From an uncultured Prevotellaceae bacterium (GTDB taxonomy: Bacteria; Bacteroidota; Bacteroidia; Bacteroidales; Bacteroidaceae), in assembly GCA_947307015.1 (NCBI GenBank), contig CAMZHV010000001.1, positions 12,846-76,845 on the forward strand: a stretch of DNA of 64,000 nt. The letters run 5' to 3'. Each line of letters opens with the position of its first letter. Position 1 is the first letter of the stretch. A program made the translations under genes and the position numbers. This document shows, in pieces, positions 3,001 to 45,340 of this stretch. Under the pieces are notes generated by a model. It was not told the origin of the DNA, made no database searches, and saw only the letters and a list, made by a program, of their open reading frames with translations.

Positions 3001-4404
3001 GAGGAAATAACTGGTGTTGTCCATGTGAACATAGACCTTCTCCTGTGGGATGAAGGTGCCGAAGCGTTCGAGGCGATCAACCAGGCGTTCCATTGGCGGT
3101 AGTGAAGCCTGATAGGCTGCGACGCTGTCGAGGCGCGCCTGCAGCAGATCCACAGTACCTTGCGCGATGGCCTGTTCCTCTGCAGTGCGTTTGATAATTT
3201 CATTATTGGCCCAGAAGGTGCTGTCGTATCCTGCTTCAGAAATGGCACTAAGCATATTCTCACGTGCACGCGCGCTTTTCTTTATTTTAAGGTGCGACTG
3301 GCCTTCCGTATTGAAGAGCATCGTGCGCGTCTGGAAGTCTCCCCATTTGGTTTGCATAGACAGGTCAGCGACTTCGGGGTATTTGTGGTCATAGCGATAG
3401 TCGATATGGAAATCCAGCGTCACGGGTATTACCGTAGCACTACGCAGGCTCCCCTTGCCGAAACTGATTTTCATGTTTTCCACTTGTCCGTCGAAAGCCA
3501 GCACGCTGAGCGTCCTGCGGTCGACATAGAGCGTACCTGTCATGATTGGCTGCTGGATGTCAAGGTTTTCGTTGCGTTTGAAATGGACGATATAGAGCTG
3601 TTGATCGGCATCTGCCGCTTCCTCGAAGGTAATATCGTAGTATTTTTTGAAGTATGAGATATTGCTGGTCTTCCTTTCTTTTTTTGCAGCACGATGTGCC
3701 CAGTCGTAGTAGTAGCTTTGCTGATGGTTGTAACCCGTGAAGCCCTTCTCGGGCAACGGAGTCAGCAGACGGTGCCAGAAGCTGGCATCGAGCGTCATTG
3801 GGCCTAACTCCAGGACGTGATGCAGGTTCATGTCGCTCAAATTGGACTCTGCCCACTGCTTCTGTGTTAATGCACCATGACGCCCTGTGAGGAAGGTCAG
3901 TTCGCGTAGGTTTACTGCCGAGCGTGCGCTGATGAATGCCTCCACGATGTCCTGCTTGCGGCTGATGACCGATGTTTGACGGTAGAAGAACTGTGCTGTC
4001 TTCGATTTCTTGCGATTGAAGGCTTTCTCCATCTGCTTGGCCACTTGTGCCAGGATGCTCTCGATGGCAGTCACCGTCACCTCGGAGAGCGTCGATGAGA
4101 GCATCTTCATCTTGATGGTTTTCGGTAGTTTGTTGGCGCGCAGGGTCAAGGTTTCACGGCCAATGCACGTCAGGCGCACGACATCCGAGGAATCAGCAGT
4201 GATGCTGAATTCTCCATCGAAGTTCGTCAGCGTGTTGTTCTCCTCGCTGACATAAACGCCCACTAACGGCAATGCCTCACCCGATTCAGCATCGATCACG
4301 CGTGCTGAGAAGGTTGCTTGCGCCATCGTGGTAAGGGTGGCTGCCAGCAACAAACAAACTGCCAGCACGCGTCGCCATTCTATAATAAAAACCTTCGTTT
4401 CCAT
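100..4404 (-). CDS. Large secreted protein: CarboxypepD_reg-like N-terminal domain followed by an MG2/alpha-2-macroglobulin-like region
   Basis: 1434-aa ORF. Signal-like N-terminus (LLLAATLTTMAQA), then ARVIDAESGEALPLVGVYV...NFDGEFSI, typical of carboxypeptidase-regulatory-like domains. Carries a 66-nt in-frame module at 2042-2107. Confidence 0.6.
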   Translation of the reverse strand: METKVFIIEWRRVLAVCLLLAATLTTMAQATFSARVIDAESGEALPLVGVYVSEENNTLTNFDGEFSITADSSDVVRLTCIGRETLTLRANKLPKTIKMKMLSSTLSEVTVTAIESILAQVAKQMEKAFNRKKSKTAQFFYRQTSVISRKQDIVEAFISARSAVNLRELTFLTGRHGALTQKQWAESNLSDMNLHHVLELGPMTLDASFWHRLLTPLPEKGFTGYNHQQSYYYDWAHRAAKKERKTSNISYFKKYYDITFEEAADADQQLYIVHFKRNENLDIQQPIMTGTLYVDRRTLSVLAFDGQVENMKISFGKGSLRSATVIPVTLDFHIDYRYDHKYPEVADLSMQTKWGDFQTRTMLFNTEGQSHLKIKKSARARENMLSAISEAGYDSTFWANNEIIKRTAEEQAIAQGTVDLLQARLDSVAAYQASLPPMERLVDRLERFGTFIPQEKVYVHMDNTSYFLGDTIWFAAYTRRTNDDKPSRISRVLYAELWNHDGYMVERKLVEMKEGRGHGFFALPDTLYSGYFELRAYTRWQLNWGQTEHFHAWSTEYSFYNKAMAKDFFRDYEKLYSRVFPVYDKPKEEGDFYRDMTFRPLRRYFKSEPKAPELRLSLFPEGGNLVAGVPCRVAFEAATSEGEMKEGSLCLRVKKDIIKVKNDQGEVVDSVITENRGRGTFIFTPQEGVKYEAVFTPDEQPKDTKKPVTVSQDIKDIKSEGVALQVRRDTITGDWLFDIAAAGLAAQQPLGITVMNEGKVAFFEEMSPTPHSQIHFTPSLTGRAGGESSPGVYQITVFDSIGHIYADRLFFVTNPELMQPTLQFTGQKEQYEPFERIDFDVTSAHLMPDQTVSLTVRDVIHSDNTFDSGNIMTELLLASEIKGFVPQPDYFFEKDDEEHRRALDLLMLTQGWRRFNWQDMAIKGAWDITHPAEHTQIVTGTVNRYWSLMEERDNIFQDVAADHERFMMEQTPSLSEQQSNPLFEADGRPTAFHANDFHQGLPVGYSRRNMAWNLSPIYEQRSNIGAISDTWHGIYSLQGNDWESTDYNVLSFRTNRLYQEQQRRQRKLAARRYIERGTVKKEVRVHAEFINLYDPNDFLVGETETTNGTFQIDLPRFEGQCEFFLGASDTTKWKKKWDGLHRRKPHAWVQIDRQTEYDLMAGRLGDFPEYYVRLNFPYPRWIKPYTYYQVHNAPLRDTTYLSPRLLTDGTHLLDQITVRTRHGGLRHVDLSKPAYVIDAYQAHNESMDAGFFGGYSNATSGITGVKIGDMGMYRHYTSKTYLDGKPASFWYGPLERARFSLLSNLDKIYIYTDYSPRREGDERYEQSNQPEVIVDIHRYKDGSQRATYRDRRYILDGFAFQEDFYSPDYQRNPPKEGQKDYRRTLYWNPELKLDANGHAHVRLFNNSQKTTIAIDAAGQTANGGLLYNYNTSRR
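2042..2107 (+). repeat. Type-A GC module (GACTCTCCCCCCG + CCCTCCCT-GTT-AGGGAGGG) plus degenerate partner tail GGGGGGTGGGGCTC, in frame in a CDS
   Basis: Near-identical to the arms at 21852, 21951, 34589 and 34696. Translated on the minus strand as [22 protein letters not shown]. Confidence 0.85.
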
Positions 4405-11912: not shown

Positions 11913-13802
11913 ATGGCAGATAGTTTAAACATCCAAGAGCTGGAGCAGGTGGTGGTCCGCTTCTCCGGCGACAGCGGCGACGGTATGCAGCTCGCCGGCA
12001 ACATCTTCTCCACGGTATCGGCTACCGTGGGCAACAGTATCTCCACGTTCCCCGACTATCCCGCCGACATCCGCGCTCCGCAAGGCTCGCTGACGGGTGT
12101 GAGCGGCTTTCAGGTGCACATCGGTGCTGCTCAGGTCTATACGCCTGGTGACCAGTGCGACGTCTTAGTGGCAATGAACGCAGCAGCCTTCAAGACACAA
12201 CTGCGTTATGCCAAGCCTAACGCCACGATCATCATCGACACCGACTCCTTCACGAAGAAGGACCTCGACAAGGCGGAATTCAAGACCGACGACTACATCG
12301 CTGAGATGGGCGTTGACCCCGACCGTGTCATCGCCTGTCCGCTGACCACGATGGTCAAAGACGCGCTGGCCGACACGGGTATGGATGCGAAGAGCGTGCT
12401 CAAGTGCCGCAATATGTTTGCGCTGGGCCTCGTCTGCTGGCTGTTCAGCCGCGACCTGAACGTGGCTTTCAACTTCCTGCGTGAGAAGTTCGCCAAGAAG
12501 CCGGCCATCGCCGAGGCTAACATCAAGGTGATTCAGGCAGGTTACGACTACGGTCACAATACGCACTCCAGCGCGATGAACGTCTATCGCATTGAGTCGA
12601 AGGAAAAGAAGCCCGGACGCTACATGGATATCACAGGCAACAAGGCCACAGCTTACGGCTTCATCGCTGCTGCCGAGAAGGCTGGCTTGCAGCTCTACCT
12701 CGGCTCCTATCCCATCACCCCTGCTACGGATGTGCTTCATGAACTTTCGAAGCATAAGAGCCTAGGTGTGAAGACGGTGCAGTGTGAGGACGAAATTGCA
12801 GGTTGCTCATCGGCTGTTGGTGCAAGCTTTGCCGGTGCATTGGCTGTGACCTCCACCTCCGGTCCTGGCATCTGCCTCAAAAGCGAGGCAATGAACCTGG
12901 CGGTCATCATGGAATTGCCACTCGTCGTCCTCGACGTACAGCGCGGAGGTCCTGCTACGGGTCTCCCCACGAAATCGGAACAGACGGACCTCTTGCAGGT
13001 ACTCTTCGGTCGCAACGGTGAGAGCCCGATGCCTGTGATGGCAGCTCTCTCACCAACGGACTGCTTCGCAGCGGCTTACGACGCTTCGAAGATGGCGTTG
13101 GAGCACATGACGCCCGTCGTGCTCTTGACCGATGCTTTCATCGCCAACGGCAGCGGCGCCTTCAAACTGCCTGACCTCGAAAAGATGCCTGCCATCAAGC
13201 CGCCGTATGTGCCCGAGGAGCTGCGCGGCAGTTGGACGCCTTATATGCGTGCTGAAAACGGCGCCCGCTACTGGGCTGTACCGGGGCGCGAGGGCTTTGA
13301 ACATATTCTCGGCGGACTGGAGAAGGACAACAAGACAGGTGCCATCAGTACCAATCCCGAGAACCACGACCTCATGACGCGTCTGCGTGCTGAGAAGGTG
13401 GCCAAGATCCAAGTCCCCGACCTCGAAGTGGAAGGTGATACCGCAGACGCCGACCTGCTGATAGTAGGCTTCGGTAGCACCTACGGACATCTGCACGCGG
13501 CAATGGATGAACTGAGAGGAGTGGCGGCCCCCCATTCGGCCCCCAGGGGGGCTACGGATGTTAATCCCTATAAAGTGGCTCTTGCACAATTCCGTTATCT
13601 GAATCCCTTACCCGCAAATACAGCAGAGGTACTGAAGCGTTACCCAAAAGTAGTTGTCGCCGAACAGAACATGGGACAATTGGCTTCATATCTTCGCATG
13701 AAAATTGATAATTTTGTTCCCAAACAGTTTAACCAAGTCAAGGGCCAACCTTTCGTTGTTAGCGAATTGGTAGAAGCATTCAAGCAAATATTGGATGAAT
13801 AA
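11913..13802 (+). CDS. korA: 2-oxoglutarate/2-oxoacid:ferredoxin oxidoreductase subunit alpha (fused gamma-alpha type)
   Basis: 629 aa. FSGDSGDGMQLAG..., PITPATD and QRGGPATGLPTKSEQTDL motifs. Carries an in-frame module (VAAPHSAPRGATDV) at 13526-13560. Confidence 0.9.
   Translation: MADSLNIQELEQVVVRFSGDSGDGMQLAGNIFSTVSATVGNSISTFPDYPADIRAPQGSLTGVSGFQVHIGAAQVYTPGDQCDVLVAMNAAAFKTQLRYAKPNATIIIDTDSFTKKDLDKAEFKTDDYIAEMGVDPDRVIACPLTTMVKDALADTGMDAKSVLKCRNMFALGLVCWLFSRDLNVAFNFLREKFAKKPAIAEANIKVIQAGYDYGHNTHSSAMNVYRIESKEKKPGRYMDITGNKATAYGFIAAAEKAGLQLYLGSYPITPATDVLHELSKHKSLGVKTVQCEDEIAGCSSAVGASFAGALAVTSTSGPGICLKSEAMNLAVIMELPLVVLDVQRGGPATGLPTKSEQTDLLQVLFGRNGESPMPVMAALSPTDCFAAAYDASKMALEHMTPVVLLTDAFIANGSGAFKLPDLEKMPAIKPPYVPEELRGSWTPYMRAENGARYWAVPGREGFEHILGGLEKDNKTGAISTNPENHDLMTRLRAEKVAKIQVPDLEVEGDTADADLLIVGFGSTYGHLHAAMDELRGVAAPHSAPRGATDVNPYKVALAQFRYLNPLPANTAEVLKRYPKVVVAEQNMGQLASYLRMKIDNFVPKQFNQVKGQPFVVSELVEAFKQILDE
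13526..13560 (+). repeat. Type-B GC module, left end (GGCCCCCCATTC + GGCCCCCAGGGGGGCT + ACGGATG), in frame in korA
   Basis: Differs at 3 of 35 positions from the corresponding end of the 90-nt element in thrC (28400-28434, reverse complement). Confidence 0.85.
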
Positions 13803-14170
13803 TGAGCTACGACTACCAGACTGCCGATTCTGCTCTATATCACATATTGCGTGAAAATGCTGCATACAATAGGAATCACCCCACAGAAGCAGAAGCACTG
13901 CTTTGGGAATTCTTGGGTGCGGATGGACTGGGAGTTACATTCAAAAGCCAACATATTATAGGTGATTATATCGCGGATTTTGTATGTTTGACTTCCAAGT
14001 TAATCGTTGAACTCGACGGTGGATACCATCAACTCGCACAACAGCAAATAAGTGATGAGCAACGTACAGAATGGTTAGAAAGCAGAGGCTTCAAAATCAT
14101 CCGATTCACAAACGAAGAACTATTTCACAACGTTGACAAAGTATTAGATACGATAAAAGATAATCTATAA
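13802..14170 (+). CDS. DUF559 / Vsr-like endonuclease-domain protein
   Basis: 122 aa. DFVCLTSKLIVELDGGYHQ...EQRTEWLESRGFKIIRFTNEEL matches the DUF559 (PD-(D/E)xK, Vsr-like) pattern. TAATG overlaps with the korA stop and with the korB start. Confidence 0.85.
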   Translation: MSYDYQTADSALYHILRENAAYNRNHPTEAEALLWEFLGADGLGVTFKSQHIIGDYIADFVCLTSKLIVELDGGYHQLAQQQISDEQRTEWLESRGFKIIRFTNEELFHNVDKVLDTIKDNL

Positions 14171-15231
14171 TGAATACTAATTCCAATGCAAACGTAGCCC
14201 CCTCGGGGGCCGAAGGGGGGGCCGCTACTTGGATGGCTTCCGATTATAAGAAAGGGCAGCCGAGGTGGTGCCCGGGATGCGGAGATCATTTCTTCCTGGC
14301 ATCTTTGCATAAGGCGCTGGCCGAAATTGGCGTAGCGCCCAAGGACATCGCCGTCATCAGCGGTATCGGTTGCAGCAGTCGTCTGCCCCATTACATGGCC
14401 ACCTACGGCATGAACACCATTCACGGTCGTGCTGCCGCCATCGCCACTGGTGCGAAGGTGACGAATCCCAAGCTGGATGTGTGGCAGATCAGCGGCGACG
14501 GCGACGGCTTAGCCATTGGCGGTAACCATTTCATCCACGCCAACCGCCGAAACATCGACCTGAACATAATCCTGCTGAACAACCGTATCTACGGTTTGAC
14601 GAAGGGTCAGTACTCGCCCACCAGCCCTCGTGGCTTCGTCTCGAAGTCCAGCCCTTATGGCACTGTCGAGGATCCCTTCCGCCCCGCTGAGCTATGCTTT
14701 GGTGCCCGTGGTCATTTCTTCGCTCGTGCCGTGGCCACTGATGCTCCTGGTACCATCGAGGTACTGAAGGCTGCCCATGACCATAAGGGTGCCAGTGTCA
14801 CCGAGATCCTTCAAAATTGCGTCATCTTCAACAATGGTACGCACGATAGCGTCTATGACAAGGACGGCCGCAAGAAGAACGCCATCTACGTGCGTCACGG
14901 CGAGAAGCTCGTCTTTGGCGAGAACAACGAATTCGGTCTCGTGCAGCAGGGCTTTGGTCTCAAGGTCGTGGAGATTGGCAAGGACGGCTACACGCTCGAC
15001 GACGTTCTTGTCCACGATGCACACTGCGAGGACAACACGCTGCAGCTGAAGCTCGCCCTCATGGGCGATGGCGACGGTTTCCCCATCGCCCTCGGCGTCA
15101 TTCGCGATGTGGCAGCGCCCACCTATGATGATGCTGTCACCGCACAGATCGCAGAGGTCAGCGCCGCGAAGAAGTATCACAACTTCGCCGAGCTCCTCGA
15201 AACAAACGATATTTGGGAAGTTCGCGAGTAA
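14170..15231 (+). CDS. korB: 2-oxoglutarate/2-oxoacid:ferredoxin oxidoreductase subunit beta (TPP-binding)
   Basis: 353 aa. WCPGCGDH and GDGDGLAIGGNH motifs. An alternative in-frame ATG at 14233 lies just after the type-B module. Confidence 0.9.
   Translation: MNTNSNANVAPSGAEGGAATWMASDYKKGQPRWCPGCGDHFFLASLHKALAEIGVAPKDIAVISGIGCSSRLPHYMATYGMNTIHGRAAAIATGAKVTNPKLDVWQISGDGDGLAIGGNHFIHANRRNIDLNIILLNNRIYGLTKGQYSPTSPRGFVSKSSPYGTVEDPFRPAELCFGARGHFFARAVATDAPGTIEVLKAAHDHKGASVTEILQNCVIFNNGTHDSVYDKDGRKKNAIYVRHGEKLVFGENNEFGLVQQGFGLKVVEIGKDGYTLDDVLVHDAHCEDNTLQLKLALMGDGDGFPIALGVIRDVAAPTYDDAVTAQIAEVSAAKKYHNFAELLETNDIWEVRE
14194..14223 (-). repeat. Type-B GC module, right end (GTAGCCCCCTCGGGGGC + CGAA + GGGGGGGCC)
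   Basis: Inverted partner of 13526-13560. Resembles the other end of the thrC element (28345-28373). Read as VAPSGAEGGAA if korB starts at 14170. Confidence 0.8.
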
Positions 15232-15238: not shown

Positions 15239-15366
15239 ACAACGAATTTCACGAATTAAACGAATTCAGGTTGCGCAGTGTAAGAATGATCTTCGAATAG
15301 GTGTCATTCGTTATCAATCTTTGCTACACATAGAAAGTAATTCGTAAAATTCGTGTAATTCGTTGT
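15239..15366. repeat. AT-rich inverted-repeat element; each arm is three ACGAATT-type repeats
   Basis: Left arm acaacgaatttcacgaattaaacgaattc (15239-15267). The right arm (15337-15366) is its reverse complement, 26/30 by hand alignment. 69-nt spacer. Confidence 0.7.
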
Positions 15367-21157: not shown

Positions 21158-21916
21158 TCAAGAGGCTTCTGCTTTCAGCAAGGCTTCAGCGATGATGAGG
21201 TCGAAAGGTGTGGTGATCTTGATATTCTCACGGTTGCCATCGACGAGGGTGACGGGATGCCCCAGGGCTTCGACGACAGAGGCATCGTCGGTAAAGGTGT
21301 CGCAGTAGGGCTGCTTGTAGGCTTGGAGAAGGAGGGAGTGCGTGAAGACCTGTGGGGTTTGGACAAGGCGCAGCTTCGAGCGGTCAATGGTAGCGGACAC
21401 CCCCTCCCCAGTGTGAGAGGGAAGAAGTTGGCGCACGGTCTCGACGACAGGGACGACGGGGACGACGGCGGCGTGCTCACGGGCAGCTTCGAAACAACGA
21501 CGGATAACATCAACGGAGACGAAGGGGCGCACGCCGTCGTGGACAGCAACCAAACTCCCCTCCCTCACGGGGGCGGGGGAGAGGCTTCTTAACCCGTTCT
21601 TTACACTATGAAACCGTGTTTCGCCGCCATCGACGATAGTATGTGGCAGGGTGAAAGCGTGCTGACGGCAGAGGTCGCGCCAAAAGTCCTGCTGGTCATG
21701 TGGCAGGACAAGCACGATGCGTATGCCAGAAATAGCACGCTCGAAAGCTTCAAGCGTGTGCATCAGCACGGGACGTCCCCCGATAGGAAGGAACTGCTTA
21801 GGCAGGTCGCTGCCCATCCGCAGTCCTTTGCCTCCGGCAACGATGATGACAGACTCTCCCCCCGCCCTCCCTATTAGGGAGGGAGTAGATTGTTTTGCTA
21901 TTGGATTATCTTCCAT
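21158..21916 (-). CDS. ispD: 2-C-methyl-D-erythritol 4-phosphate cytidylyltransferase
   Basis: 252 aa. [43 protein letters not shown] and LVQTPQVF motifs. The N-terminal 22 aa are encoded by repeat spacer + arm. Confidence 0.9.
21555..21585 (-). repeat. Short type-A variant in frame in ispD
   Basis: Reverse complement GCCTCTCCCCCGCCCCCGTGAGGGAGGGGAG. Translated as [10 protein letters not shown]. Confidence 0.6.
21852..21885 (+). repeat. Type-A module (left arm of the DJ-1|ispD doublet), translated in ispD
   Basis: GACTCTCCCCCCGCCCTCCCTATTAGGGAGGGAG. 33/34 identical to the reverse complement of 21951-21984. Confidence 0.9.
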
Positions 21917-21950
21917 AAAAAGATAATAATCAGTTCTTGTTAGGTAACCG

Positions 21951-21984
21951 CTCCCTCCCTAACAGGGAGGGCGGGGGGAGAGTC
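21951..21984 (-). repeat. Type-A module (right arm of the DJ-1|ispD doublet)
   Basis: CTCCCTCCCTAACAGGGAGGGCGGGGGGAGAGTC. Ends 5 nt from the DJ-1 stop codon. Confidence 0.9.
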
Positions 21985-21989
21985 TGTTT

Positions 21990-22532
21990 TTATCTATACA
22001 ACATCCCCTGTCTGAGCGCGTCGGCGGTGGCCTTGTCCTTCATCATCTCAACGATGGTATAGCCGAACTCGAAGACGGCGGCTGGACCTTTACCGGTGAT
22101 GTATTGTCCGTCAACTTCGACGAGGGCACCGGTGCAGGTGGCTCCCTTGAGCTCGTCCTCGAAGCCGGGATAGCAGGTGGCACGCTTGCCGTCGAGCAGA
22201 CCGATACGTCCAAGCACGAGGGGGGCGGCACAGATAGCTGCTATGGGACGTCCGATGTAGGCGTGGTCGCGGACACGTTCCACGAGGGCGTGACATTCGG
22301 CGAAGTTCTTTGCACCAGGCATACCGCCGGGCAGCACAAGCAGTTCAGCATCGAAGAAGTCGATATCCTTGAGCAGGGCATCACATTCGACGCGGATGCC
22401 ATGAGCACCCGTGATGATGCGCTCGTCGGTGATAGAAACGATCTGCAGGTCGAGGCCTGCGCGGCGGATGATGTCTGCAGTGCCGAGGGCTTCTATTTCC
22501 TCAGTGCCAGTGGTAAAGAATAGATAAATCAT
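21990..22532 (-). CDS. DJ-1/PfpI (ThiJ) family protein
   Basis: 180 aa. LVLPGGMPGA and AAICAAP (nucleophile-elbow Cys) motifs. Confidence 0.9.
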   Translation of the reverse strand: MIYLFFTTGTEEIEALGTADIIRRAGLDLQIVSITDERIITGAHGIRVECDALLKDIDFFDAELLVLPGGMPGAKNFAECHALVERVRDHAYIGRPIAAICAAPLVLGRIGLLDGKRATCYPGFEDELKGATCTGALVEVDGQYITGKGPAAVFEFGYTIVEMMKDKATADALRQGMLYR

Positions 22533-27309: not shown

Positions 27310-27342
27310 ATAACGACCTTTGAGAGGGGAAAAGGAGGTTAT
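27310..27342. terminator. Possible bidirectional hairpin between convergent genes
   Basis: ataacgaccttt / aaaggaggttat arms (10/12 complementary), 9-nt loop. Overlaps the thrC stop. Confidence 0.3.
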
Positions 27343-28799
27343 TGCTGGAGGAGGAAAGCTTTGAAGTCGGCAAAATCCTTGCTCATGGCGACCGACTTCT
27401 TCTCGCCGCGCATGAAAGCCTGCAGCTTTTCGGGGATGGGAAGATCGATGCCGAGGATGCGGTCTACGGTGTCCTTGAATTTGGCGGGATGAGCGGTCTC
27501 AAGGAAGACGCCGACTTCGCCGTCTTGCAGCTGCTCTTTCAAGGCGCGATAACCGCACGCGCCGTGAGGATCAAGGATATAACCCGTGCGAGCATAACAA
27601 TCACGCATTGTCTCGGCAATCTGGTCGTCGGTGTAGGTGGCGCCGGAGATAAGGGGCCTCTCCCCCAACCCCTCCCCCGAGAGGGAGGGGAGTGGCTGTG
27701 CATAGCCTCTTTTACTTAACACTTCCATGACATCCTCACGACTGTAGAGGTCGAGGATGCGGGCGAAATTTGAGGGATCACCGACATCCATTGCATTGGC
27801 AATGGTCTGTTTCGAGGCTTTCGGCGTATACACACCTGTCTGGAGGTAGTTGTAGAACACGTCGTTGGCGTTGTTCGCCGCAATGAAACGTTTCACGGGC
27901 AGCCCCATGACGTGGCCGAACAGTGCCGAACAGATATTGCCGAAATTGCCGGAGGGGACGCAGATGACACAATCGGCTGCCCCACCGCCAACCCCTCTTC
28001 TCGTCAGGGAGGGGATAAGTTGCGCGTAAGCATAGAAATAATAAAACGCCTGCGGCAGGAAGCGGGCCACGTTGATGCTGTTGGCCGAGGTGAGGCGCAT
28101 GTGGGTATTCAGCTCCTGATCCATAAACGCCGACTTCACCAGTGCTTGGCAGTCATCGAAGACGCCATCGACCTCAATGGCCGTGATGTTTTGGCCGAGC
28201 GTCGTGAACTGACACTCCTGAATGGGCGACACCTTACCCTTCGGATAGAGCACATAAACATGTATACCCTCCACGCCGAGGAAGCCGTTGGCCACAGCCG
28301 AACCAGTGTCGCCGGAAGTGGCTACGAGTACATTAACCATGGAAGCCCCCCCTACTGCCCCCGAGGGGGCTTCTATTGTTTTGCGATTAGAGGACTTTAC
28401 ATCCGTAGCCCCCTCGGGGGCTGAATGGGGGGCCAACATATACTGAAGCAGGCGTGCCATAAATCTCGCACCCACATCTTTAAAAGCCAGCGTGGGGCCG
28501 TGGAAGAGCTCGAGGGCATAGATATTGTCCTCGACTTTCACGACAGGACAGTCGAAGGAGAGGGTGTCATAGACGATACGACGGAGGGCATCGGCTTCGA
28601 CATCTTCGCCGAAGAAGGCATCAGCGACGCGATAGGCCACCTCCTGGAATGTGAGGCCTGCCATTTCGTCCCAGAACGATTCAGGCAGTTGCTTGATGAC
28701 TTCGGGCATATACAGGCCGCGATCTTCGGCAAGGCCGCGGACGACAGCATCACGCAAAGTAGCGCGGGCAGCGGTATGGTTGGTGGAGTAGTAGAGCAT
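27339..28799 (-). CDS. thrC: Threonine synthase
   Basis: Start moved to MLYYSTNH. FKDVGARFMARLL, ATSGDTGSAVANGF and VPSGNFGN motifs. Three in-frame repeat insertions. Confidence 0.93.
   Translation of the reverse strand: MLYYSTNHTAARATLRDAVVRGLAEDRGLYMPEVIKQLPESFWDEMAGLTFQEVAYRVADAFFGEDVEADALRRIVYDTLSFDCPVVKVEDNIYALELFHGPTLAFKDVGARFMARLLQYMLAPHSAPEGATDVKSSNRKTIEAPSGAVGGASMVNVLVATSGDTGSAVANGFLGVEGIHVYVLYPKGKVSPIQECQFTTLGQNITAIEVDGVFDDCQALVKSAFMDQELNTHMRLTSANSINVARFLPQAFYYFYAYAQLIPSLTRRGVGGGAADCVICVPSGNFGNICSALFGHVMGLPVKRFIAANNANDVFYNYLQTGVYTPKASKQTIANAMDVGDPSNFARILDLYSREDVMEVLSKRGYAQPLPSLSGEGLGERPLISGATYTDDQIAETMRDCYARTGYILDPHGACGYRALKEQLQDGEVGVFLETAHPAKFKDTVDRILGIDLPIPEKLQAFMRGEKKSVAMSKDFADFKAFLLQQ
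27656..27692 (+). repeat. C-tail + hairpin module variant in frame in thrC
   Basis: GCCTCTCCCCCAACCCCTCCCCCGAGAGGGAGGGGAG. Translated as PLPSLSGEGLGERP. Confidence 0.65.
27979..28015 (+). repeat. C-tail + hairpin module variant in frame in thrC
   Basis: GCCCCACCGCCAACCCCTCTTCTCGTCAGGGAGGGGA. Translated as PSLTRRGVGGGA. Confidence 0.6.
28345..28434. mobile_element. 90-nt type-B doublet (REPIN/MITE-like), in frame in thrC
   Basis: Two inverted type-B ends (28345-28373 and 28400-28434) separated by 26 nt. 30 codons (PHSAPEGATDVKSSNRKTIEAPSGAVGGA) inserted between LQYMLA and MVNVLVATSGDTG. Confidence 0.8.
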
Positions 28800-28811
28800 A
28801 CTATAAAAAAA

Positions 28812-28844
28812 CCACCCCAACCTTCCCTGTGAGGGAGGGGGTGG
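28812..28844 (+). repeat. Type-A variant (arm of the apgM-like|thrC doublet)
   Basis: CCACCCCAACCTTCCCTGTGAGGGAGGGGGTGG. Lies 12 nt upstream of the thrC ATG. Confidence 0.7.
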
Positions 28845-28861
28845 AATGATTTGTATAATGG

Positions 28862-30172
28862 TTATTGATTATCTAATGTATCTACTCCCTCCCTCACAGG
28901 GAGGGTAAGGGGTGGGTCTGTCATAAACAACTTAATGAATTCATCGCCTTCGATGAGACCATAGGCGCCTTCGCGGGCAGCATCCTCGTCGAAGGTCTGC
29001 ACACTATCTGGCTCTATGCCGGGGTAGTAGATGGCAAAGGGGATGGGCTCGGCGGTGTGAGTGCGTAGCTCGCAGGGCGTGGGATGGTCGGGTAAAAGAG
29101 CAATGGCGAGGTCATCCGTCATTTCGAACGCATGAAGGATAGGCTGAATGAGCCGATGGTCGAGGTCTTCGATGGTCTGGAGCTTGAGGGGGACTGAACC
29201 ATCGTGACCAGCCTCGTCGCTGGCTTCGACGTGGAGATAGACGAAGTCATCACCGCTGCGAAGGGCCTCGATGGCAGCCTGTGCCTTACCCTCGAAGTTA
29301 GTGTCATAGAGACCTGTAGCACCAGGGACGTTGATGACGCGCAACCCGGCATAATGTCCGATGCCGCGGATGAGGTCTACGGCCGTGATCACGGAGCCAC
29401 GACGAATCTGCGGGAAGCGTTCGGTGAGCGGCACCATCTGCGGACGATAGCCGCCGCCCCATGGCCAGATGCTCGAAGCCATATCTTTACCCTCGCGCGC
29501 GCGTTCTTTATTTAATTCATGCAAAGGCAGAAGTTCTTGGGAACGGCGAATGAGGTCGCATAGCAGGTCGGCGGTCTCAGCGGGGGACAGGACCTCTCTT
29601 TGCTTCCCCTCAAAGGGGAGGGTGGAATCTTCAGCGCAGGTATCTGCCGAGGGGACCTTGTCGCGCCATGTCTGAAGGGGCACATCGTGTGGCGGTGTAC
29701 ATTTAAGGTGCTTGTTGCCGCCTTTGATGACCAACAGGTGACGGTACTGCACGCCCGTATAGAAATGTACGCGGTCGTTGGCTAAGTGTTCGTTGAGGTA
29801 TCGGATGAGGACGTCGCCTTCCTCCGTTTCGAGGCGTCCGCAGGAGTGGTTCTTGATGATGTCACCCTCGATGCAAACGAGGTTACAGCGTAGGGCAAGG
29901 TCACCTTCTTCCAGTTCCACGCCTATGCTGGCGGCTTCCAGCGGTCCACGACCCTCGTAAACGACGTGTTGGTCGTAGCCCATGATGCTGCTGTTGGCCA
30001 CTTCACTACCCGGATGAAAACCATCGGGAATGGTCTTCAACAATCCGCAACGACCATTACGCGCCAACCAGTCCATGGCGGGCGTGTCGGCGTATTGAAG
30101 GAGTGTCTTGTCACCGAGTGAAGGCACGTGCCAGTCGGCCATGCCGTCGCCAAGGATGATTAGATGTTTCAT
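28862..30172 (-). CDS. Cofactor-independent phosphoglycerate mutase-like (apgM family) protein; probable non-canonical homoserine kinase of the thr operon
   Basis: 436 aa. MKHLIILGDGMAD... metalloenzyme-superfamily N-terminus. Sits between thrA and thrC. The C-terminus runs into a repeat arm. Confidence 0.8.
   Translation of the reverse strand: MKHLIILGDGMADWHVPSLGDKTLLQYADTPAMDWLARNGRCGLLKTIPDGFHPGSEVANSSIMGYDQHVVYEGRGPLEAASIGVELEEGDLALRCNLVCIEGDIIKNHSCGRLETEEGDVLIRYLNEHLANDRVHFYTGVQYRHLLVIKGGNKHLKCTPPHDVPLQTWRDKVPSADTCAEDSTLPFEGKQREVLSPAETADLLCDLIRRSQELLPLHELNKERAREGKDMASSIWPWGGGYRPQMVPLTERFPQIRRGSVITAVDLIRGIGHYAGLRVINVPGATGLYDTNFEGKAQAAIEALRSGDDFVYLHVEASDEAGHDGSVPLKLQTIEDLDHRLIQPILHAFEMTDDLAIALLPDHPTPCELRTHTAEPIPFAIYYPGIEPDSVQTFDEDAAREGAYGLIEGDEFIKLFMTDPPLTLPVREGVDTLDNQ
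28885..28918 (-). repeat. Type-A module (arm of the apgM-like|thrC doublet), forms the C-terminus of the apgM-like protein
   Basis: Reverse complement GACCCACCCCTTACCCTCCCTGTGAGGGAGGGAG. Translated as DPPLTLPVREGV. Confidence 0.85.
29592..29624 (+). repeat. Hairpin module variant in frame in the apgM-like gene
   Basis: CCTCTCTTTGCTTCCCCTCAAAGGGGAGGGTGG. Translated as STLPFEGKQRE. Confidence 0.5.
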
Positions 30173-32700: not shown

Positions 32701-34656
32701 TCAAGAGGCAGCGGCCTCCTGCGGCGTCGAAAGCGCGATTTCCTCTTCCTCCATCATCTGATGGAGCACGCGGCCCACGACGCTGTCGGGGATGTCTGGG
32801 AAATGGAAGTCGAGGAATGATGTCGGCTTCTGCTCGGCAACGAAGGCGAGGATGCGCTGGCGCACGAAAGCGTCGTCAATGCGCGGCAGCGGGCTCCGCT
32901 CGGTGCAGTTGTCGCAATGTCCGCAGTCTTGAGCATCCTTCTCGCCGAAGTAACGCAGGAGGTAGCGGCTGTGGCATTCCGAGGTCTCGAGGTAGCCGAT
33001 CATCGTCTGAATGCGTTGTTCGAGTTCGCGCTTGCGGTCGCGATAAACGGATGGCGGCAGCACGATGTCGTCACTCTCGACGCGCCGCTGTCTGAAGGTG
33101 ATATAGGGGATGAACTTACGCGGCACGAACTGCAGGATATGCCGGCGGCTGAGCTCCACGAGCTGCTCGCTGACCTCTGCCTCACCTACGCTTAGGGCGT
33201 GGGCTATCTCGCCTTCGTCGATGTAGGCATACTCGCTGAAGATGCCTGTACACGTCCGCAGCAGGTGCTGCAACACGCGCTCCATCAGGGGCGGAAGATG
33301 ATAGGTGTAGAGCTCTTCGCGGTGGCAGCTCATCATCACGCGGCTGTGGTTTTCCTCCGCATCGGCCCATTCGATATAGCCGGCTCGCGACAGCAGCTGC
33401 AAGGCGTTGTAAGCCCGCACGGGAAAATGGTGGAACGTGCGACAGAACTCCTCCAGATTGAACTCTCGCGTGATGCCAAAGCCGTCGCCCATGGCTAACT
33501 GCAGGAAATAGCAGGCATCCTCGTAGACCTTCCTGACGTAATCCTCTGGCGGGTAGGTGTCTTCGATGCGGCGGCGTAGCACAGCGATGGAGCGGCTGTC
33601 GTAGAGAAGCACGGCATGAGCCTGCTGGCCATCGCGGCCGGCACGCCCTGCCTCTTGGAAATACGCTTCGGGGGAGTCGGGGACGTCGGTGTGGACGATG
33701 AGCCGCACGTCGGCCTTGTCAATACCCATGCCAAAGGCGTTTGTGGCCACCATCACGCGGATCTCGCCGTGCTGCCACGCCGCCGCCCGCTCGTTCTTCT
33801 CGCGATTCGTCAGGGCGGCATGGTAGTGAGTTGCCGTGATGCCCTGCGACACGAGCCACGAGGCCAGTTCGCGCGTAGCCTGACGGCTGCGGGTATAGAC
33901 GATGGCAGAACCGGGCACGCGGATAAGCAATTCCTGCAGCTCCTGTTCACGCGACTGTCGGATGCGGCGGACGGAATAGATCAGGTTCTTGCGTTCGAAG
34001 CTCATCCGCTTGACATTAGGCTCACGGAAGCCTAATTGCCGTTGGATATCTTCGACGACGGGCGGTGTGGCGGTGGCCGTCAGGGCAAGCACTGGCGCGT
34101 CGGGCAGCAGCTTGCGGATTTGGGAAATCTCGGTGTAAGACGGGCGGAAGTCGTAACCCCATTGCGAGATGCAGTGGGCCTCGTCCACCGTGATGAAGCT
34201 TACCTGCATGTGTCTGAGCTTGGCCTGAAAAAGCTCCGAGGACAGGCGCTCGGGCGAGACATAGAGGAATTTGTAATTGCCAAAAATGCAGTTCTCCAAC
34301 GCCGTAATCACCTCGTCGCGCGTCATGCCCGTATAGACGGCAGTGGCCTTGATGCCTTTCTCGCGGAGGTGCATCACCTGATCCTTCATCAAGGAGATCA
34401 GCGGGCTGATGACCAGGCACAACCCCTCCTGCGCCAATGCCGGCACCTGAAAGGTGATGCTCTTGCCGCCGCCCGTAGGCATAAGCCCTAAGGTATCCCT
34501 TCCCGCCCCAATACTCTCAATGATGTCCTGCTGAATACCACGGAAGGAAGAGAAACCGAAATAATGGTGTAAGATAGAACAATAAACAGACTCTCCCCCC
34601 GCCCTCCCTATCAGGGAGGGAGCAGTCACATGCGCCAGTTGCTCCTTTCCGTTCAT
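32701..34656 (-). CDS. recQ: RecQ-family ATP-dependent DNA helicase
   Basis: 651 aa. FRGIQQDII (Q motif), MPTGGGKS, DEAHCISQWGYDFRP, ATNAFGMGIDK and QEAGRAGRDG motifs. The N-terminal 23 aa are encoded by spacer + repeat arm. Confidence 0.92.
   Translation of the reverse strand: MNGKEQLAHVTAPSLIGRAGGESVYCSILHHYFGFSSFRGIQQDIIESIGAGRDTLGLMPTGGGKSITFQVPALAQEGLCLVISPLISLMKDQVMHLREKGIKATAVYTGMTRDEVITALENCIFGNYKFLYVSPERLSSELFQAKLRHMQVSFITVDEAHCISQWGYDFRPSYTEISQIRKLLPDAPVLALTATATPPVVEDIQRQLGFREPNVKRMSFERKNLIYSVRRIRQSREQELQELLIRVPGSAIVYTRSRQATRELASWLVSQGITATHYHAALTNREKNERAAAWQHGEIRVMVATNAFGMGIDKADVRLIVHTDVPDSPEAYFQEAGRAGRDGQQAHAVLLYDSRSIAVLRRRIEDTYPPEDYVRKVYEDACYFLQLAMGDGFGITREFNLEEFCRTFHHFPVRAYNALQLLSRAGYIEWADAEENHSRVMMSCHREELYTYHLPPLMERVLQHLLRTCTGIFSEYAYIDEGEIAHALSVGEAEVSEQLVELSRRHILQFVPRKFIPYITFRQRRVESDDIVLPPSVYRDRKRELEQRIQTMIGYLETSECHSRYLLRYFGEKDAQDCGHCDNCTERSPLPRIDDAFVRQRILAFVAEQKPTSFLDFHFPDIPDSVVGRVLHQMMEEEEIALSTPQEAAAS
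34589..34629 (+). repeat. Type-A module (arm of the recJ|recQ doublet), translated in recQ
   Basis: GACTCTCCCCCCGCCCTCCCTATCAGGGAGGGAGCAGTCAC. 39/41 complementary to 34689-34729. Confidence 0.9.
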
Positions 34657-34688
34657 TAACTATCAAAAAATGAAAACAAATCTTGAAG

Positions 34689-34729
34689 GTGACTGCTCCC
34701 TCCCTTTTAGGGAGGGCGGGGGGAGAGTC
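34689..34729 (-). repeat. Type-A module (arm of the recJ|recQ doublet)
   Basis: GTGACTGCTCCCTCCCTTTTAGGGAGGGCGGGGGGAGAGTC. Ends 6 nt from the recJ stop. Confidence 0.9.
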
Positions 34730-34735
34730 TTCTCC

Positions 34736-36457
34736 TTATTCCTCGCTCGGCCTGATATCCTCAATCTGCAACTGCACCTCGCCCCGCTTATGCGTGTTCT
34801 CCTCCACCGTGTAGCAGATGTCGAACGCCCGGCGACTCTTGATGAAGCGAGCCTGCGAGCTCTGGCCGAAAGCGATGCCGCTGACGACGTTGTGGCTCTT
34901 GTTGTCCACCAGCTCCAGCTTGATGTGTTCCTGGTGATGACCTACCACCTTGCTGGTGCCGTAGTCGTACACATGCTCCGTGCAGAACAGCGGCTTCTGA
35001 TTGTCCGGGCCGAAAGGTTGGAACTTGCGCAGGTCGTTGAAGAAGCGATGGCTGATGTCCTTGAAGTCCAACATTCCGTCGATATTCAGGTCGGGCTGGA
35101 TCTGCGATTCGAGGATGTTCTCATTGACATATTCCTCGAAGCGGCGCTTGAATTCGGGCACGTTCTCCACCTTCATCGATAGACCGGCAGCGTAGGTGTG
35201 ACCGCCGAAGTTCTCTAAGAGGTCGCGGCAGCTGTCGATGGCGCGGTAGACATCGAAGCCTCCGACGGAGCGTGCCGAGCCCGTGGCCATATCGTCGGTA
35301 CGGGTGAGTACGACAGCCGGACGGCAGTACACCTCTGTCAGTCGCGAGGCCACGATGCCGATGACGCCTTTGTGCCACTCCTCGTTGTAGATGACGATGG
35401 CGCGCTGCTCGTGGTTGTGGTCGAGCTTCTCCACGATGTCGTTGGCTTCCTGCGTCATCTCCTTGTCGAGGTCTTTGCGCTGGTCGTTATAGGCGTTAAT
35501 CTGCAGGGCCATGCGATGTGCACGGTACGGGTCACGCTCCACAAGCAGGGCCACGGCTTCGCTGCCCTTCTGCATACGTCCCGAGGCGTTGATGCGCGGG
35601 CCGATCTTAAAAATGATGTCGCTCATCGTGATCTCGCGATCCAGCAGGCCGCAGATCTCGATGATAGCCTTCAGCCCCACGCTCGCCTTCGAGTTGATCT
35701 GCTTCAGGCCGTGATAGGCCAGCACGCGGTTCTCGCCTAAGATAGGTACGATGTCCGAGGCGATGCTCACGGCGCACAAGTCCAGCAGCGGCACCAACTG
35801 CGAGAAGGGGATACCGTTGTCGATGGCAAAAGCCTGCATCAGCTTGAAGCCCACACCGCAGCCCGACAGGTGTTCGTAGGGGTAAGTGGCATCTACGCGC
35901 TTGGCGTTGAGGATAGCCACGGCGGGCGGCAGCTCATCATCCGGCACGTGGTGGTCGCAGATGATGAAGTCGATGCCTAACTCCTTGGCGTAGGCAATCT
36001 CCTCGTTGGCCTTAATGCCACAGTCCAGGACGATGATAAGTCCCACGCCCGTCTCATGAGCGAAGTCCACGCCCTGTTTGCTCACGCCATACCCCTCCTC
36101 GTAGCGGTCGGGGATGTAAAAATCGATGTTGGTTGTGAACTGTTGCAGGAAACGGTAGACCAAAGCTACCGCCGTGCAACCATCCACGTCGTAGTCTCCA
36201 TACACTAAGATACGTTCCTTGCGTCCGAGAGCCAGGTTCAGCCGATCGACAGCAACCCGCATATCACGGAAAAGAAAAGGATCAAGCAGTTCGTTGAGCT
36301 GCGGCCGGAAGAAACGTCGCGCCTCCAACGAATTGGTGATGCCGCGATCCAGTAGTAGCAGGCCGAGAGCGGGGTGAATACCCACGTCGGCGGCCAAGGC
36401 CTCAGCTGCTTCCTGTCGTTCGGGTGTAGGAGGTTCGTAATTCCATTTGTAGTTCAT
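34736..36457 (-). CDS. recJ: Single-stranded-DNA-specific exonuclease RecJ
   Basis: 573 aa. DHH motifs (VYGDYDVDG, DCG, ICDHH) and DHHA1 (GGHTYAAG). Confidence 0.93.
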   Translation of the reverse strand: MNYKWNYEPPTPERQEAAEALAADVGIHPALGLLLLDRGITNSLEARRFFRPQLNELLDPFLFRDMRVAVDRLNLALGRKERILVYGDYDVDGCTAVALVYRFLQQFTTNIDFYIPDRYEEGYGVSKQGVDFAHETGVGLIIVLDCGIKANEEIAYAKELGIDFIICDHHVPDDELPPAVAILNAKRVDATYPYEHLSGCGVGFKLMQAFAIDNGIPFSQLVPLLDLCAVSIASDIVPILGENRVLAYHGLKQINSKASVGLKAIIEICGLLDREITMSDIIFKIGPRINASGRMQKGSEAVALLVERDPYRAHRMALQINAYNDQRKDLDKEMTQEANDIVEKLDHNHEQRAIVIYNEEWHKGVIGIVASRLTEVYCRPAVVLTRTDDMATGSARSVGGFDVYRAIDSCRDLLENFGGHTYAAGLSMKVENVPEFKRRFEEYVNENILESQIQPDLNIDGMLDFKDISHRFFNDLRKFQPFGPDNQKPLFCTEHVYDYGTSKVVGHHQEHIKLELVDNKSHNVVSGIAFGQSSQARFIKSRRAFDICYTVEENTHKRGEVQLQIEDIRPSEE

Positions 36458-43441: not shown

Positions 43442-44653
43442 TCAATACTCACATTCTATCGTTACATTGTCTATCCACAGCGTGCTGCCCACGGCACCAC
43501 AGAAATTGCCTCCGTCGGCACTCGAAGTGAAGACGATGGCCATCGAATAGTTCTCGCCCTCTACATCTTCCTGGCTGAGTTCAGTTGTATAGACGATGGG
43601 CAGTTCGAACTTTGTCCACTCCGAACTGTTCATGACCACGTCCTCGCTATTGATGCGGGCCTTACCCACTACATATTCTGCGTTGGGATTCTTCTGGGGA
43701 TTGGTCTCCAAGATGTTTCCATCCATCTGTATACGATTGCCCTGCGCATCCGCATTGCGATAGATGACGCAATAGATGTCGGGGTAGTCGATCTCGCCAG
43801 GCAAGGCATTACCCTGACGATCCTGCTTCGTAGCGCCGGGCTGATATTTATAGTAGCCTGACATCTTCACTGGCTTATGGGCATAGGGATGGCCCATCTT
43901 TGTGGCTGCCAATGCATTGCGCAAGGCATTCGCCACGTCAAAGCTTCCGGCGAATAGGTTGCCGGCAGCGATTCTCATATTGACCATCGCACCGAAGCCC
44001 TTCGTATCACTGGTTGTCAAACGGACGCAGTTCTTACCGTCGACACCCGTATGCTCCTCGGGGCAAGTGGGATATTCCTGCGGTTTAGCCGAGCTTACGC
44101 TGAGACGGTAGCCAGGATTGCCTGTAGCCCACCACGGCGATACGGGAACGTTGGGTTCATGCCATTCGTAGAAGCTGCCACGCTCGTCTAACTGGTAATA
44201 GTCGTCAAAAGAGAAATAGAGGTCACCGCCGCCACGGACACGTGGCATGACGCTGACGCCATAGTCGCGGTGGTAGTTTCCATCTTCGGAGTGTACGCGG
44301 AACATCACGACCTGGGCATTGGAAAAATCGACGACGTCACCGTTCACGAAGGGCACTTCGCGGTTGTTCAACGCATCTAAGCGGAAGATTTGCGCACCAG
44401 GCGTGACCTGCATATACAGGGGCATCTGCGTCACTACGACATCATAACGTGTCTGGAAGACTATCGCGGTCTCCGCCGAGGGCACCTCATAGAGGGTGTC
44501 ATAAGAATGGAAGAACATCTCTTCCGGCACGTCCGTATGAACCCATATTTTTTCGATGTCGCACTCGGCATTGGCCGGTTCGTCGCCGAAGCACGAGGCG
44601 AATTGCAGGGCACCCACAATGGGCAAAAGGGCGATGATATGTGTTTTCTTCAT
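43442..44653 (-). CDS. PCMD-domain lipoprotein
   Basis: Start at MKKTHIIALLPIVGALQFASC (lipobox). WWATGNPGY...IAAGNLFAGSF...MSGYYKYQPG pattern of the putative carbohydrate metabolism domain. Confidence 0.7.
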   Translation of the reverse strand: MKKTHIIALLPIVGALQFASCFGDEPANAECDIEKIWVHTDVPEEMFFHSYDTLYEVPSAETAIVFQTRYDVVVTQMPLYMQVTPGAQIFRLDALNNREVPFVNGDVVDFSNAQVVMFRVHSEDGNYHRDYGVSVMPRVRGGGDLYFSFDDYYQLDERGSFYEWHEPNVPVSPWWATGNPGYRLSVSSAKPQEYPTCPEEHTGVDGKNCVRLTTSDTKGFGAMVNMRIAAGNLFAGSFDVANALRNALAATKMGHPYAHKPVKMSGYYKYQPGATKQDRQGNALPGEIDYPDIYCVIYRNADAQGNRIQMDGNILETNPQKNPNAEYVVGKARINSEDVVMNSSEWTKFELPIVYTTELSQEDVEGENYSMAIVFTSSADGGNFCGAVGSTLWIDNVTIECEY

Positions 44654-44742
44654 GTTCTCTGCAATCAAAAAATGTGTGAAGTGTGATGTGAGTAAAAGCT
44701 ATTAAATGTGTAAATCTTGTTAACGTAGCCATAAAAACGGCA

Positions 44743-44750
44743 CAAAGGTA
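44743..44750 (-). promoter_or_regulatory. Putative -7 box TACCTTTG for the PCMD / beta-barrel / T9SS-protein operon
   Basis: 89 nt upstream of ATG 44653. Confidence 0.4.
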
Positions 44751-44885
44751 ATACTTTCTCCTTAAATAATATCAAAAAAACGGTAATATCGGCGTTTTGT
44801 ACCGAATTTTCCCTTCTCTACGCATTATTTTCACGACAGAGGAAAAGATTTTTGCGATTCCTTTCGCTTTTTTTGATTTTCTATA

Positions 44886-44893
44886 TATCTTTG
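44886..44893 (+). promoter_or_regulatory. Putative -7 box TATCTTTG for DUF4492-cydAB
   Basis: 74 nt upstream of ATG 44968. Confidence 0.45.
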
Positions 44894-44967
44894 TCCCGCA
44901 ATCGAATCACTCGAGCCCATTTCTAAACATCTTGACCTAACAAACCTACATTCCTAACCACCTGATA

Positions 44968-45237: not shown

Positions 45238-45297
45238 TAAACTAATTAACAATTTAAAAGAATGACCCTAATAGCCTCCTTTACTCTAAACATTCAA

Positions 45298-45330: not shown

Positions 45331-45340
45331 TTTTAAACCT

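Follow-up and report, generated by a model that had tools for sequence, protein, structure and literature searches.

In a 64,000-nucleotide stretch of DNA from an uncultured Prevotellaceae bacterium (GenBank assembly GCA_947307015.1, contig CAMZHV010000001.1; the whole stretch is called the window here), the genes korA and korB, encoding the alpha and beta subunits of a 2-oxoacid:ferredoxin oxidoreductase, are joined through a small DUF559 gene, which shares a low GC content with the 3' end of korA. The locus raises the question of what kind of element carries the DUF559 gene, and whether the end of korA was brought in with it. The comparisons showed that positions 13520-14229 are a single-gene cassette, consisting of a DUF559 nuclease gene between two asymmetric GC-rich hairpin ends (arms), and that palindromic doublets of ~75-90 bp, an abundant family lying in frame in protein genes of rumen Prevotellaceae, have these arms as their ends.

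The arms form a 37-nt inverted repeat (13520-13556 and 14193-14229) that is 89% complementary, with 636 nt in between. A 21-nt arm pattern occurs three times in the window and the hairpin core GCCCCCNNGGGGGC four times (13539, 14197, 28357 and 28408), against 0.01 expected in each case. All genes of the locus are on the plus strand. The reading frame of korA (open reading frame (ORF) 11913-13802, 629 aa; Pfam POR 4e-28, POR_N 5.5e-46) is interrupted without a frameshift by the left cassette end (13521-13571), which is made up of the GC-rich two-part arm (13520-13556) and ~15 nt of inner-left sequence and is translated as VAAPHSAPRGATDVNPY. Compared with empty and direct-type relatives (described below), this end stands in place of ~3 loop codons (ELR-xGH-KVALAQF) of cassette-free KorA, and its inner-left sequence is that of a second copy of the ends, found in thrC. 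The left end is followed by the korA 3' tail (13572-13802, 77 codons including the stop), which is AT-shifted yet functional, then by the DUF559 gene (13802-14170, 122 aa; Vsr-fold PD-(D/E)XK nuclease) and by the korB ORF (14170-15231; Pfam TPP_enzyme_C). As read directly from the sequence, TAATG overlaps join the korA stop to the DUF559 start (13800-13804) and the DUF559 stop to the korB start (14168-14172). The right end (14170-14232), which includes the right arm, supplies an ATG and extends KorB by 21 codons at its N-terminus (MNTNSNANVAPSGAEGGAATW). An ATG at 14233 aligns with the korB start of the empty-site loci L024, L029 and L032, so that korB from its ancestral start covers 14233-15231. 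The cassette is built into the expression of the operon, its right end giving KorB a start codon and an in-frame leader. The predicted arm-encoded peptide segments are APHSAPRGATDVNPYK in KorA, NVAPSGAEGGAATW in KorB and APHSAPEGATDVK...EAPSGAVGGAS in ThrC.

An initial annotation of this DNA had described a selfish-looking nuclease cassette, bounded by terminal inverted repeats (TIRs) and set seamlessly into the korAB operon, with a 122-aa DUF559 ORF, TAATG overlaps on both sides and an alternative korB start at 14233, and all of this was borne out. Its inverted arms around a low-GC stretch were also found, with the coordinates corrected to those given above (636 nt instead of 633), and the functional korA C-terminus inside them comprises 77 codons including the stop rather than ~80.

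The interior of the cassette (13561-14192, 632 nt) has a GC content of 39.7%, compared with 59.7% and 56.7% in flanks of equal size. It is the lowest-GC stretch of this length in the 64 kb, where 0.02% of 632-nt segments are as low (mean 54.3%, sd 3.9). GC at third codon positions (GC3) falls abruptly just past the left arm, from 0.68 in the korA body to 0.38-0.39 in the tail and 0.37 in DUF559, while plausible long genes of the window have values of 0.58-0.79; the drop noticed in the initial annotation is thus real in both sliding GC and codon usage. A contig from a sister strain (L230) showed 98-100% identity per 100-nt segment over the aligned 1.77 kb (window 12656-14421), and shares both the arms and the GC step, so that neither the cassette nor the step is an assembly artefact. 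This comparison of junctions in sister strains, proposed initially as a check, confirmed the arrangement. No Rfam family was detected in 13300-14400 at E <= 1. Taken singly, the arms showed no more stable folding than shuffled sequence did (z -0.01 and -0.95), no T-run follows them, and they were rejected as stable hairpins or terminators.

The DUF559 protein matched PF04480 with 106.4 bits (cut-off 20.6; E 9e-31) over residues 17-121. Sequence matches in the PDB were 3hrl (1e-19) and 3r3p (2.9e-4), the latter being the catalytic domain of the homing endonuclease I-Bth0305I. A Foldseek search with an AlphaFold2 (AF2) model (pLDDT 84, pTM 0.79) gave the same two structures at the top (TMt 0.80 for 3hrl and 0.77 for 3r3p), with Vsr (1vsr) at rank 9 and the nuclease domains of AbaSI and PvuRts1I also lower down; model and search together show a Vsr-type restriction-endonuclease-like fold. 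Vsr, DUF559 and 3r3p share one PD-(D/E)XK clade (clade 58; PMC3424549). The closest characterised structural relative is I-Bth0305I, in line with the likeness to homing endonucleases suggested initially. Residues D59, E70, D72, H76, R101 and N104 are invariant among 24 DUF559 homologues and dN/dS is ~0.05, and the protein is a maintained, probably active nuclease. No recognised transposase (DDE, HUH, Ser or Tyr) was found in the cassette, the sole ORF of which is DUF559, with PF04480 and PF18741 as the only Pfam assignments. An exact-protein look-up with the window DUF559 gave no identical record, and homologues at 62-98% identity are plentiful in rumen and gut metagenomes and in metagenome-assembled genomes (MAGs) of Prevotella/Bacteroidaceae. 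The JGI names of some homologues (guanylate kinase, metH) are spurious, as P0058 lies at korA|korB and P0056 at gltX-like|kdtA. A phage origin was rejected, since in IMG/VR the arm pattern was absent and a single distant DUF559 (37% identity) was detected.

Two arrangements of the cassette were found in relatives. In the window type, korA and korB are separated by a DUF559 homologue of 80-91% identity, with both arms kept and a low-GC interior, on contigs from independent rumen Prevotellaceae assemblies whose outer neighbours differ. In the direct type, seen in more distant relatives and also in ones of 82% and 85% identity, the arms directly bracket the DUF559 ORF (L014, L017, L025 and L226; also L224, 1287-1800, with a full L-R' doublet on the left; L132 and L159 were so classed by arm spacing). 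The left arm of the direct type is a short C-terminal extension of KorA, with the stop codon supplied by the cassette, and the right arm is an N-terminal extension of KorB from a cassette-borne ATG. In L010, L014, L017 and L025 the native korB ATG has been lost and the cassette ATG alone remains. Other DUF559 genes with the same ends, for which the initial annotation had proposed a search, exist not only at korA|korB but at two further junctions. At gltX-like|kdtA the cassette is intact in L020 (340-850, left side a full L-R' doublet) and a truncated pseudogene in L184 (1376-1830), and at S9-peptidase-like|4HBT it occurs in L228/L229 (L228 2379-2915, where the left side is again a full L-R' doublet). 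In L020, L224 and L228 DUF559 therefore lies between two direct R-type arms, which offers a simple recombination route from the cassette to an ORF-less doublet.

As the direct-type arms bracket DUF559 only, and the korA tail is GC-rich where measured, the mobile unit is arm-DUF559-arm with the tail excluded. There are two arm types, which co-vary with the DUF559 clade. The divergence of DUF559 at 4-fold sites follows that of korA and korB in 9/10 pairs, with only L001/L006 lower (0.23 vs ~0.4); for both tail and DUF559 it about equals that of the flanks, which fits vertical inheritance. Recent horizontal spread of the cassette in this clade was rejected, as sliding identity and 4-fold divergence are equal to those of the flanks.

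The copy in thrC is an ORF-less doublet of one left and one right end (28342-28437, minus strand), in frame and read as LAPHSAPEGATDVKSSNRKTIEAPSGAVGGAS. It had been recognised initially as a pair of ends 26 nt apart and taken for a derivative like a miniature inverted-repeat transposable element (MITE). The doublet is real and belongs to a very large ORF-less population, and its arms are 35 nt apart according to the repeat finder. It folds into one long hairpin (dG -31.8 kcal/mol, z -5.9), and ThrC homologues of equal identity level lack the insert of the window (P0125, 457 aa). An exact-pattern scan of metagenome contigs detected, on at least 120 rumen contigs, at least 95 left-right doublets versus at least 4 DUF559 genes. 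Among the matches listed, the doublet length is divisible by 3 in 83/95 (p = 1e-27), and a long ORF (at least 40 open codons on each side) reads through 82 of the 91 doublets away from contig ends; random segments of those contigs gave 74% by the same criterion. One orientation and frame accounts for 63 of the 95 listed doublets, with the peptide AP(L/H/P)S(S/A)PEG(D/A)T...(K)TIEAPSGAVGGA. The in-frame doublets are apparently translated. The long gene-bearing and short ORF-less copies share their TIRs, as MITEs do with their parent elements, and an in-frame palindrome encodes a conserved peptide in unrelated genes, as in Rickettsia palindromic elements (RPEs). Arm cores outside cassettes were found 7 times in 124 kb of loci carrying the DUF559 of type B (the name of these ends in the initial annotation) and once in 572 kb of loci without it (p = 4e-5; the loci are short).

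Other insertions of this kind were observed in the same material. A complete type-B doublet lies in frame inside the body of korA at MVKDAL^, a second site in this gene (L124 2502-2588 and L199 1069-1143). In some ORFs the arms and the 9-nt AAGCCCCCC units are expanded, in tandem or nested (L140 59-390, L155 3176-3331, L173 265-470 and the flanks of L150/L176), and encode repeated peptides (APPSAPEGATIA..., KTIDKSASKTID...); their flanks are palindromic too. The ThrC homologues P0121-P0240 (thrC of the window, 27339-28820, minus strand) vary in length between 435 and 586 aa, owing to in-frame insertions at no fewer than four sites, to which at least three recognisable palindrome families contribute, e.g. 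SPVRAGNE..SPLPNRGG and KGESLASLESCAQPHPSLTGG. Inserts of at least three families occur in the loop that follows residue 127.

The surroundings of the cassette were compared in the korA loci of the 80 closest GTDB species, all of them rumen or gut Prevotellaceae MAGs or isolates, e.g. Xylanibacter ruminicola. In most, the gap between korA and korB is ~40 nt, and about one quarter have one small low-GC ORF at this junction. The fillers are DUF559 in 6 species (one contig truncated), PDDEXK_3 in 13 and 23S_rRNA_IVP (IVP) in 3, most of the other junctions being empty; the arms are absent from the junction in ~55/80 species. Close relatives thus differ in whether this one conserved site has a nuclease gene, as is typical of homing. 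The TIRs are specific to each family, with GC-rich two-part arms for DUF559, inverted arrays of AT-rich 9-mers for PDDEXK_3 and inverted heptamer arrays for IVP. The korA|korB junction is a hot spot shared by three cassette families, each with its own TIRs.

Relatives of the other two families were also seen in the window. Directly after the korB stop, at 15239-15366, there are ORF-less inverted arrays, ACAACGAATTTCACGAATTAAACGAATT and AATTCGTAAAATTCGTGTAATTCGTTGT, 72 nt apart, with a spacer of 33% GC. They are of the end type that brackets the PDDEXK_3 cassette at korA|korB of L021, and by this resemblance the pair is probably a gene-less derivative of that family. The heptamer GACAATG forms inverted arrays at 54218-54312, which are 33-49 nt apart and 97-100% complementary and have the architecture of the heptamer ends of the IVP cassettes in L038 and L042.

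The second part of the question concerns the low-GC korA tail. The left end lies in the KorA loop only in the window-type lineages (the window, L001-L013, L124 and L230), where ~3 codons have become 17-20. The AT-shifted tail is confined to these lineages (GC3 0.39-0.59), and in close relatives, the tails of which lie outside the arms, GC3 is 0.63-0.83 (mostly >0.7). The initial annotation had proposed that a replacement korA 3' end was carried in by the cassette, or co-converted from a lower-GC donor. This could not be upheld, as the direct-type arms exclude the tail and no donor was found: when the tails of the 80 GTDB species and of metagenome loci were ranked by identity at codon positions 1+2 and at position 3, none qualified as a low-GC donor. 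A foreign origin of the tail was likewise not supported by comparison with relatives, since at codon positions 1+2 it is nearest to the same native clade as the korA body and its AT shifts are independent in sublineages. The dN of the tail versus relatives is ordinary, and the synonymous sites are strongly different.

The tail differs from GC-rich relatives mainly by C->T and G->A changes. Measured against their consensus, 20/48 ancestral G/C third positions have become A/T by transition and 3/48 by transversion; the korA body has the same spectrum at about half the frequency (42/180 transitions and 8/180 transversions; Fisher p = 0.014). The window and L010 share 8 AT-shifted sites where 8.2 are expected (p = 0.65), and since these sites are independent, they indicate parallel AT drift in place and not one acquisition. 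The window and the closer L006 share 19 versus 13.3 expected (p = 0.0015). In L001, L007 and L010 the tail is a mosaic, interspersed with GC-rich patches. These patterns fit a native tail that would be drifting to AT in place, with occasional recombination patches. The 44-51 nt that make up the left end, with arm and inner-left sequence together, have homologous counterparts in L025, at its left end next to DUF559, and in the thrC doublet, as its left half. Separately, it was observed that L006 and L007 are ~99.8% identical over korA-DUF559-korB and that 17 substitutions set them apart within a single 65-nt patch of the korA tail (locus positions 3908-3971, ~window 13710-13775; QFNQVKGQPFVVSELV), a short recombination patch adjoining the cassette.

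The explanation that we prefer, and to which we give somewhat better than even chances, is that DUF559 drives the propagation of arms and doublets from the cassette, and that the native korA tail is drifting to AT under enclosure. The nuclease would be the trans-acting enzyme that keeps the arm family alive, by nicking or cutting arms or hairpins, with the break being repaired by copying. The partnership would be REPIN/RAYT-like (doublets of repetitive extragenic palindromic (REP) sequences forming hairpins, with REP-associated tyrosine transposases) or homing-like, with one master gene and many non-autonomous doublets, and in this clade the master cassette would be inherited vertically. In the window lineage a 51-nt left end would have come to occupy a KorA surface loop, 250 bp further upstream than in relatives, thereby enclosing the native 231-bp korA tail between two structural heterologies. 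Ordinary korA alleles would seldom patch such a tail by homologous recombination, and the loss of homologous exchange would remove GC-biased conversion, leaving the universal GC->AT mutation bias unopposed, as on DUF559. The tail would then drift through GC->AT transitions, separately in sublineages, towards the composition of DUF559, while short recombination patches would restore GC. Its low GC would thus be a consequence of enclosure, since it is cut off from exchange, rather than a sign that it is foreign. Alternatively, the paired arms could hold out a single-stranded loop, the deamination of which would likewise shift the tail to AT in place.

Several observations weigh against DUF559-driven propagation and drift under enclosure. 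The flanks are often palindromic themselves (AAG...CTT, GG...CC) or contain repeated AAGCCCCCC units, and, for want of empty sites in near-identical strains, no consistent direct repeat could be defined as a target-site duplication. On the L199 contig no DUF559 was detected despite the doublet in korA, so that a master gene would have to be elsewhere or absent. Among the loci compared, no intermediate showing the route of the left end into the KorA loop was found. Judged by the distances of DUF559 and KorA, the window is no farther from L025 (direct type) than from L010 (window type), which means that the relocated arrangement arose twice, reverted or was exchanged. The IVP cassettes at korA|korB encode no nuclease and yet have TIRs, so TIR-bounded cassettes need not mobilise themselves. 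The recombination-cold pocket as the cause of AT drift is deduced from general principles, and the link between DUF559 and arm propagation is correlative, coming from short loci rather than whole genomes.

Three rival explanations were considered. The korA tail and DUF559 may together be one mobile or homing segment from a lower-GC donor, as a composite transposon or through co-conversion, which would account for the exact coincidence of the compositional step with both arms and for the equal GC3 of tail and DUF559. Co-conversion of flanking markers is an established property of free-standing homing endonucleases (PMC2988022), the present nuclease is related to I-Bth0305I, a local recombination patch adjoins the cassette in L006 vs L007, and DUF559 of L001/L006 is less diverged than its flanks (0.23 vs ~0.4 at 4-fold sites). 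However, the cassette divergence otherwise follows the flanks, the arms bracket DUF559 only in most lineages, with a GC-rich tail where measured, and no displaced original tail is present downstream of the right arm. The tail protein is nearest to the native clade, with no low-GC donor in the 80 nearest species, its substitution spectrum is transition-dominated and unsaturated, and the AT-shifted sites of the window and L010 are statistically independent. This explanation is already weakened and we consider it unlikely.

We also regard it as improbable, to a similar degree, that DUF559 travels as passive cargo, or has been domesticated for repair or defence, and that the arms are moved by another enzyme, by slippage or by recombination, piling up at permissive junctions and loops. 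Such passivity would agree with the presence in the same genomes, even in the same ThrC loop, of several other palindrome families without a linked gene, and with the IVP cassettes, the L199 doublet and the vertical inheritance of the cassette. It is harder to reconcile with arm-DUF559-arm units at three unrelated junctions, with the co-variation of arm type and DUF559 clade, with the enrichment of arms in DUF559-positive loci, and with the strong purifying selection acting on a nuclease which these ends invariably flank. Finally, the arms could be functional RNA or protein elements of the operon (hairpins in korA/korB mRNA, or peptide linkers) and not selfish DNA, given that their position is conserved across diverged lineages and that the right arm lies within the sole available KorB start region in several of them. 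But ~55/80 related species have no arms at the junction, the sequence is dispersed over genes with no relation to one another, in either orientation and in three frames, Rfam gave no match in the region searched, and single arms fold no better than shuffled sequence; this view therefore appears very improbable. Returning to propagation by DUF559, a broader proposal, for which our confidence is tentative and short of even, is that a Vsr-fold DUF559 master copy between operon genes propagates translated ~90-bp intragenic doublets and would be the first PD-(D/E)XK-driven REPIN/RAYT-like system, with PDDEXK_3 and IVP as parallel competing systems, and that enclosed DNA would decay to AT.

Several known systems resemble parts of this one. 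The RPEs (Ogata et al. 2000, 2002) are ~150 bp long, about half of them in frame, and are likewise short palindromes in frame in unrelated housekeeping genes, encoding a conserved peptide, tolerated in surface loops and present as several families per genome (PMC10969869). The likeness is one of architecture. The host here belongs to the Bacteroidota (rumen Prevotellaceae), the arms are GC-rich and two-part in elements of 75-90 bp, and a gene-bearing version with the same ends (arm-DUF559-arm) exists. We know of no report of a gene-bearing RPE. The doublets are also in frame far more often (82/91 among the matches listed) than the RPEs, for which the proportion is about half. With REPIN-RAYT systems they share dispersed palindromic doublets together with a gene set in inverted copies of the same repeats, purifying selection, vertical inheritance and a repeat type that co-varies with the protein clade (PMC3116915; bioRxiv 10.1101/2021.07.10.451892). 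The gene here, however, encodes a 122-aa Vsr-fold PD-(D/E)XK nuclease and not an IS200-like HUH (Y1) transposase, and the doublets are ~90% intragenic and apparently translated, among the matches listed, whereas REPINs are extragenic.

A small nuclease gene between conserved genes, with presence/absence polymorphism, is also typical of free-standing homing endonucleases (seg and mob of T4-like phages; PMC2988022), and the DUF559 protein is related in fold and sequence to I-Bth0305I (PDB 3r3p). Unlike those genes, the cassette is in a bacterial chromosome and not in a phage or intron, with no arms in IMG/VR, it is bounded by TIRs and has ORF-less derivatives, and it shows no sign of recent horizontal spread. 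The IVP (four-helix-bundle) cassettes, whose ORF family belongs to 23S rRNA intervening sequences, and the 'GxxExxY'-PDDEXK_3 cassettes are similar in being single small ORFs in inverted repeats at the same korA|korB junction, but their proteins are unrelated and their ends are AT-rich tandem 7-9-mers. The IVP and PDDEXK_3 families are scattered intergenic inserts, and a literature search found no paper describing them as such. Yeast GC clusters and Neurospora PstI palindromes are GC-rich mobile palindromes that can be in frame in coding sequence and mark recombination boundaries; these fungal mitochondrial clusters, in contrast, occur in AT-rich organelle genomes, and we know of no nuclease gene that is linked to them and shares their ends. 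In full-text literature searches no description of the arm-DUF559-arm or in-frame doublet system was found. The system combines traits of RPEs, REPIN-RAYT, homing endonucleases and elements of the intervening-sequence (IVS) type, yet falls outside the definition of each, because it has no transposase, is not extragenic and shows no horizontal spread.

The window contains further repeats and low-GC DNA outside this system. Three GC-rich doublets at 21842-21994, 34577-34741 and 28815-28911 belong to another family (GACTCTCCCCCCGCCCTCCCTATCAGGGAGGGAG... and a shorter relative), are 87-91% complementary and are each located at a gene junction, on the minus strand; probably these are the repeats that the initial annotation had called type A. 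A near-perfect 33-nt palindrome at 48787-48854 (TGACGTGTACTGAATAAGCTGACACTTTCTTGA / TCAAGAGTGTGTCAGCTTATTCAGTACACGTCA; 94% complementary, 2-nt loop) is unrelated in sequence to the arm families. The sole other stretch of the window with GC <= 42% over 632 nt (approximately 44600-45340) was rejected as a second cassette, since it looks like ordinary intergenic DNA, containing a small membrane-protein ORF (44968-45237) and lying upstream of a gene of the cytochrome-bd-like kind (45341-46900).

If DUF559 does propagate the doublets, the enzyme partner of a protein-coding palindrome family would have been identified, and DUF559, a very large family of unknown function, would gain a concrete, testable role in recognising or cutting a defined hairpin. 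We know of no enzyme partner for the Rickettsia elements. In-frame palindromes would then be a major source of protein length variation in the abundant Prevotellaceae of rumen and gut, and variation of the kind seen in ThrC affects gene calling, protein clustering and MAG annotation. A sharp GC step, as found in korA, need not mean horizontal transfer. The AT-shifted korA tail would instead be a natural experiment on an essential coding segment cut off from homologous exchange, and as such it bears on the debate over what maintains the GC content of bacteria.

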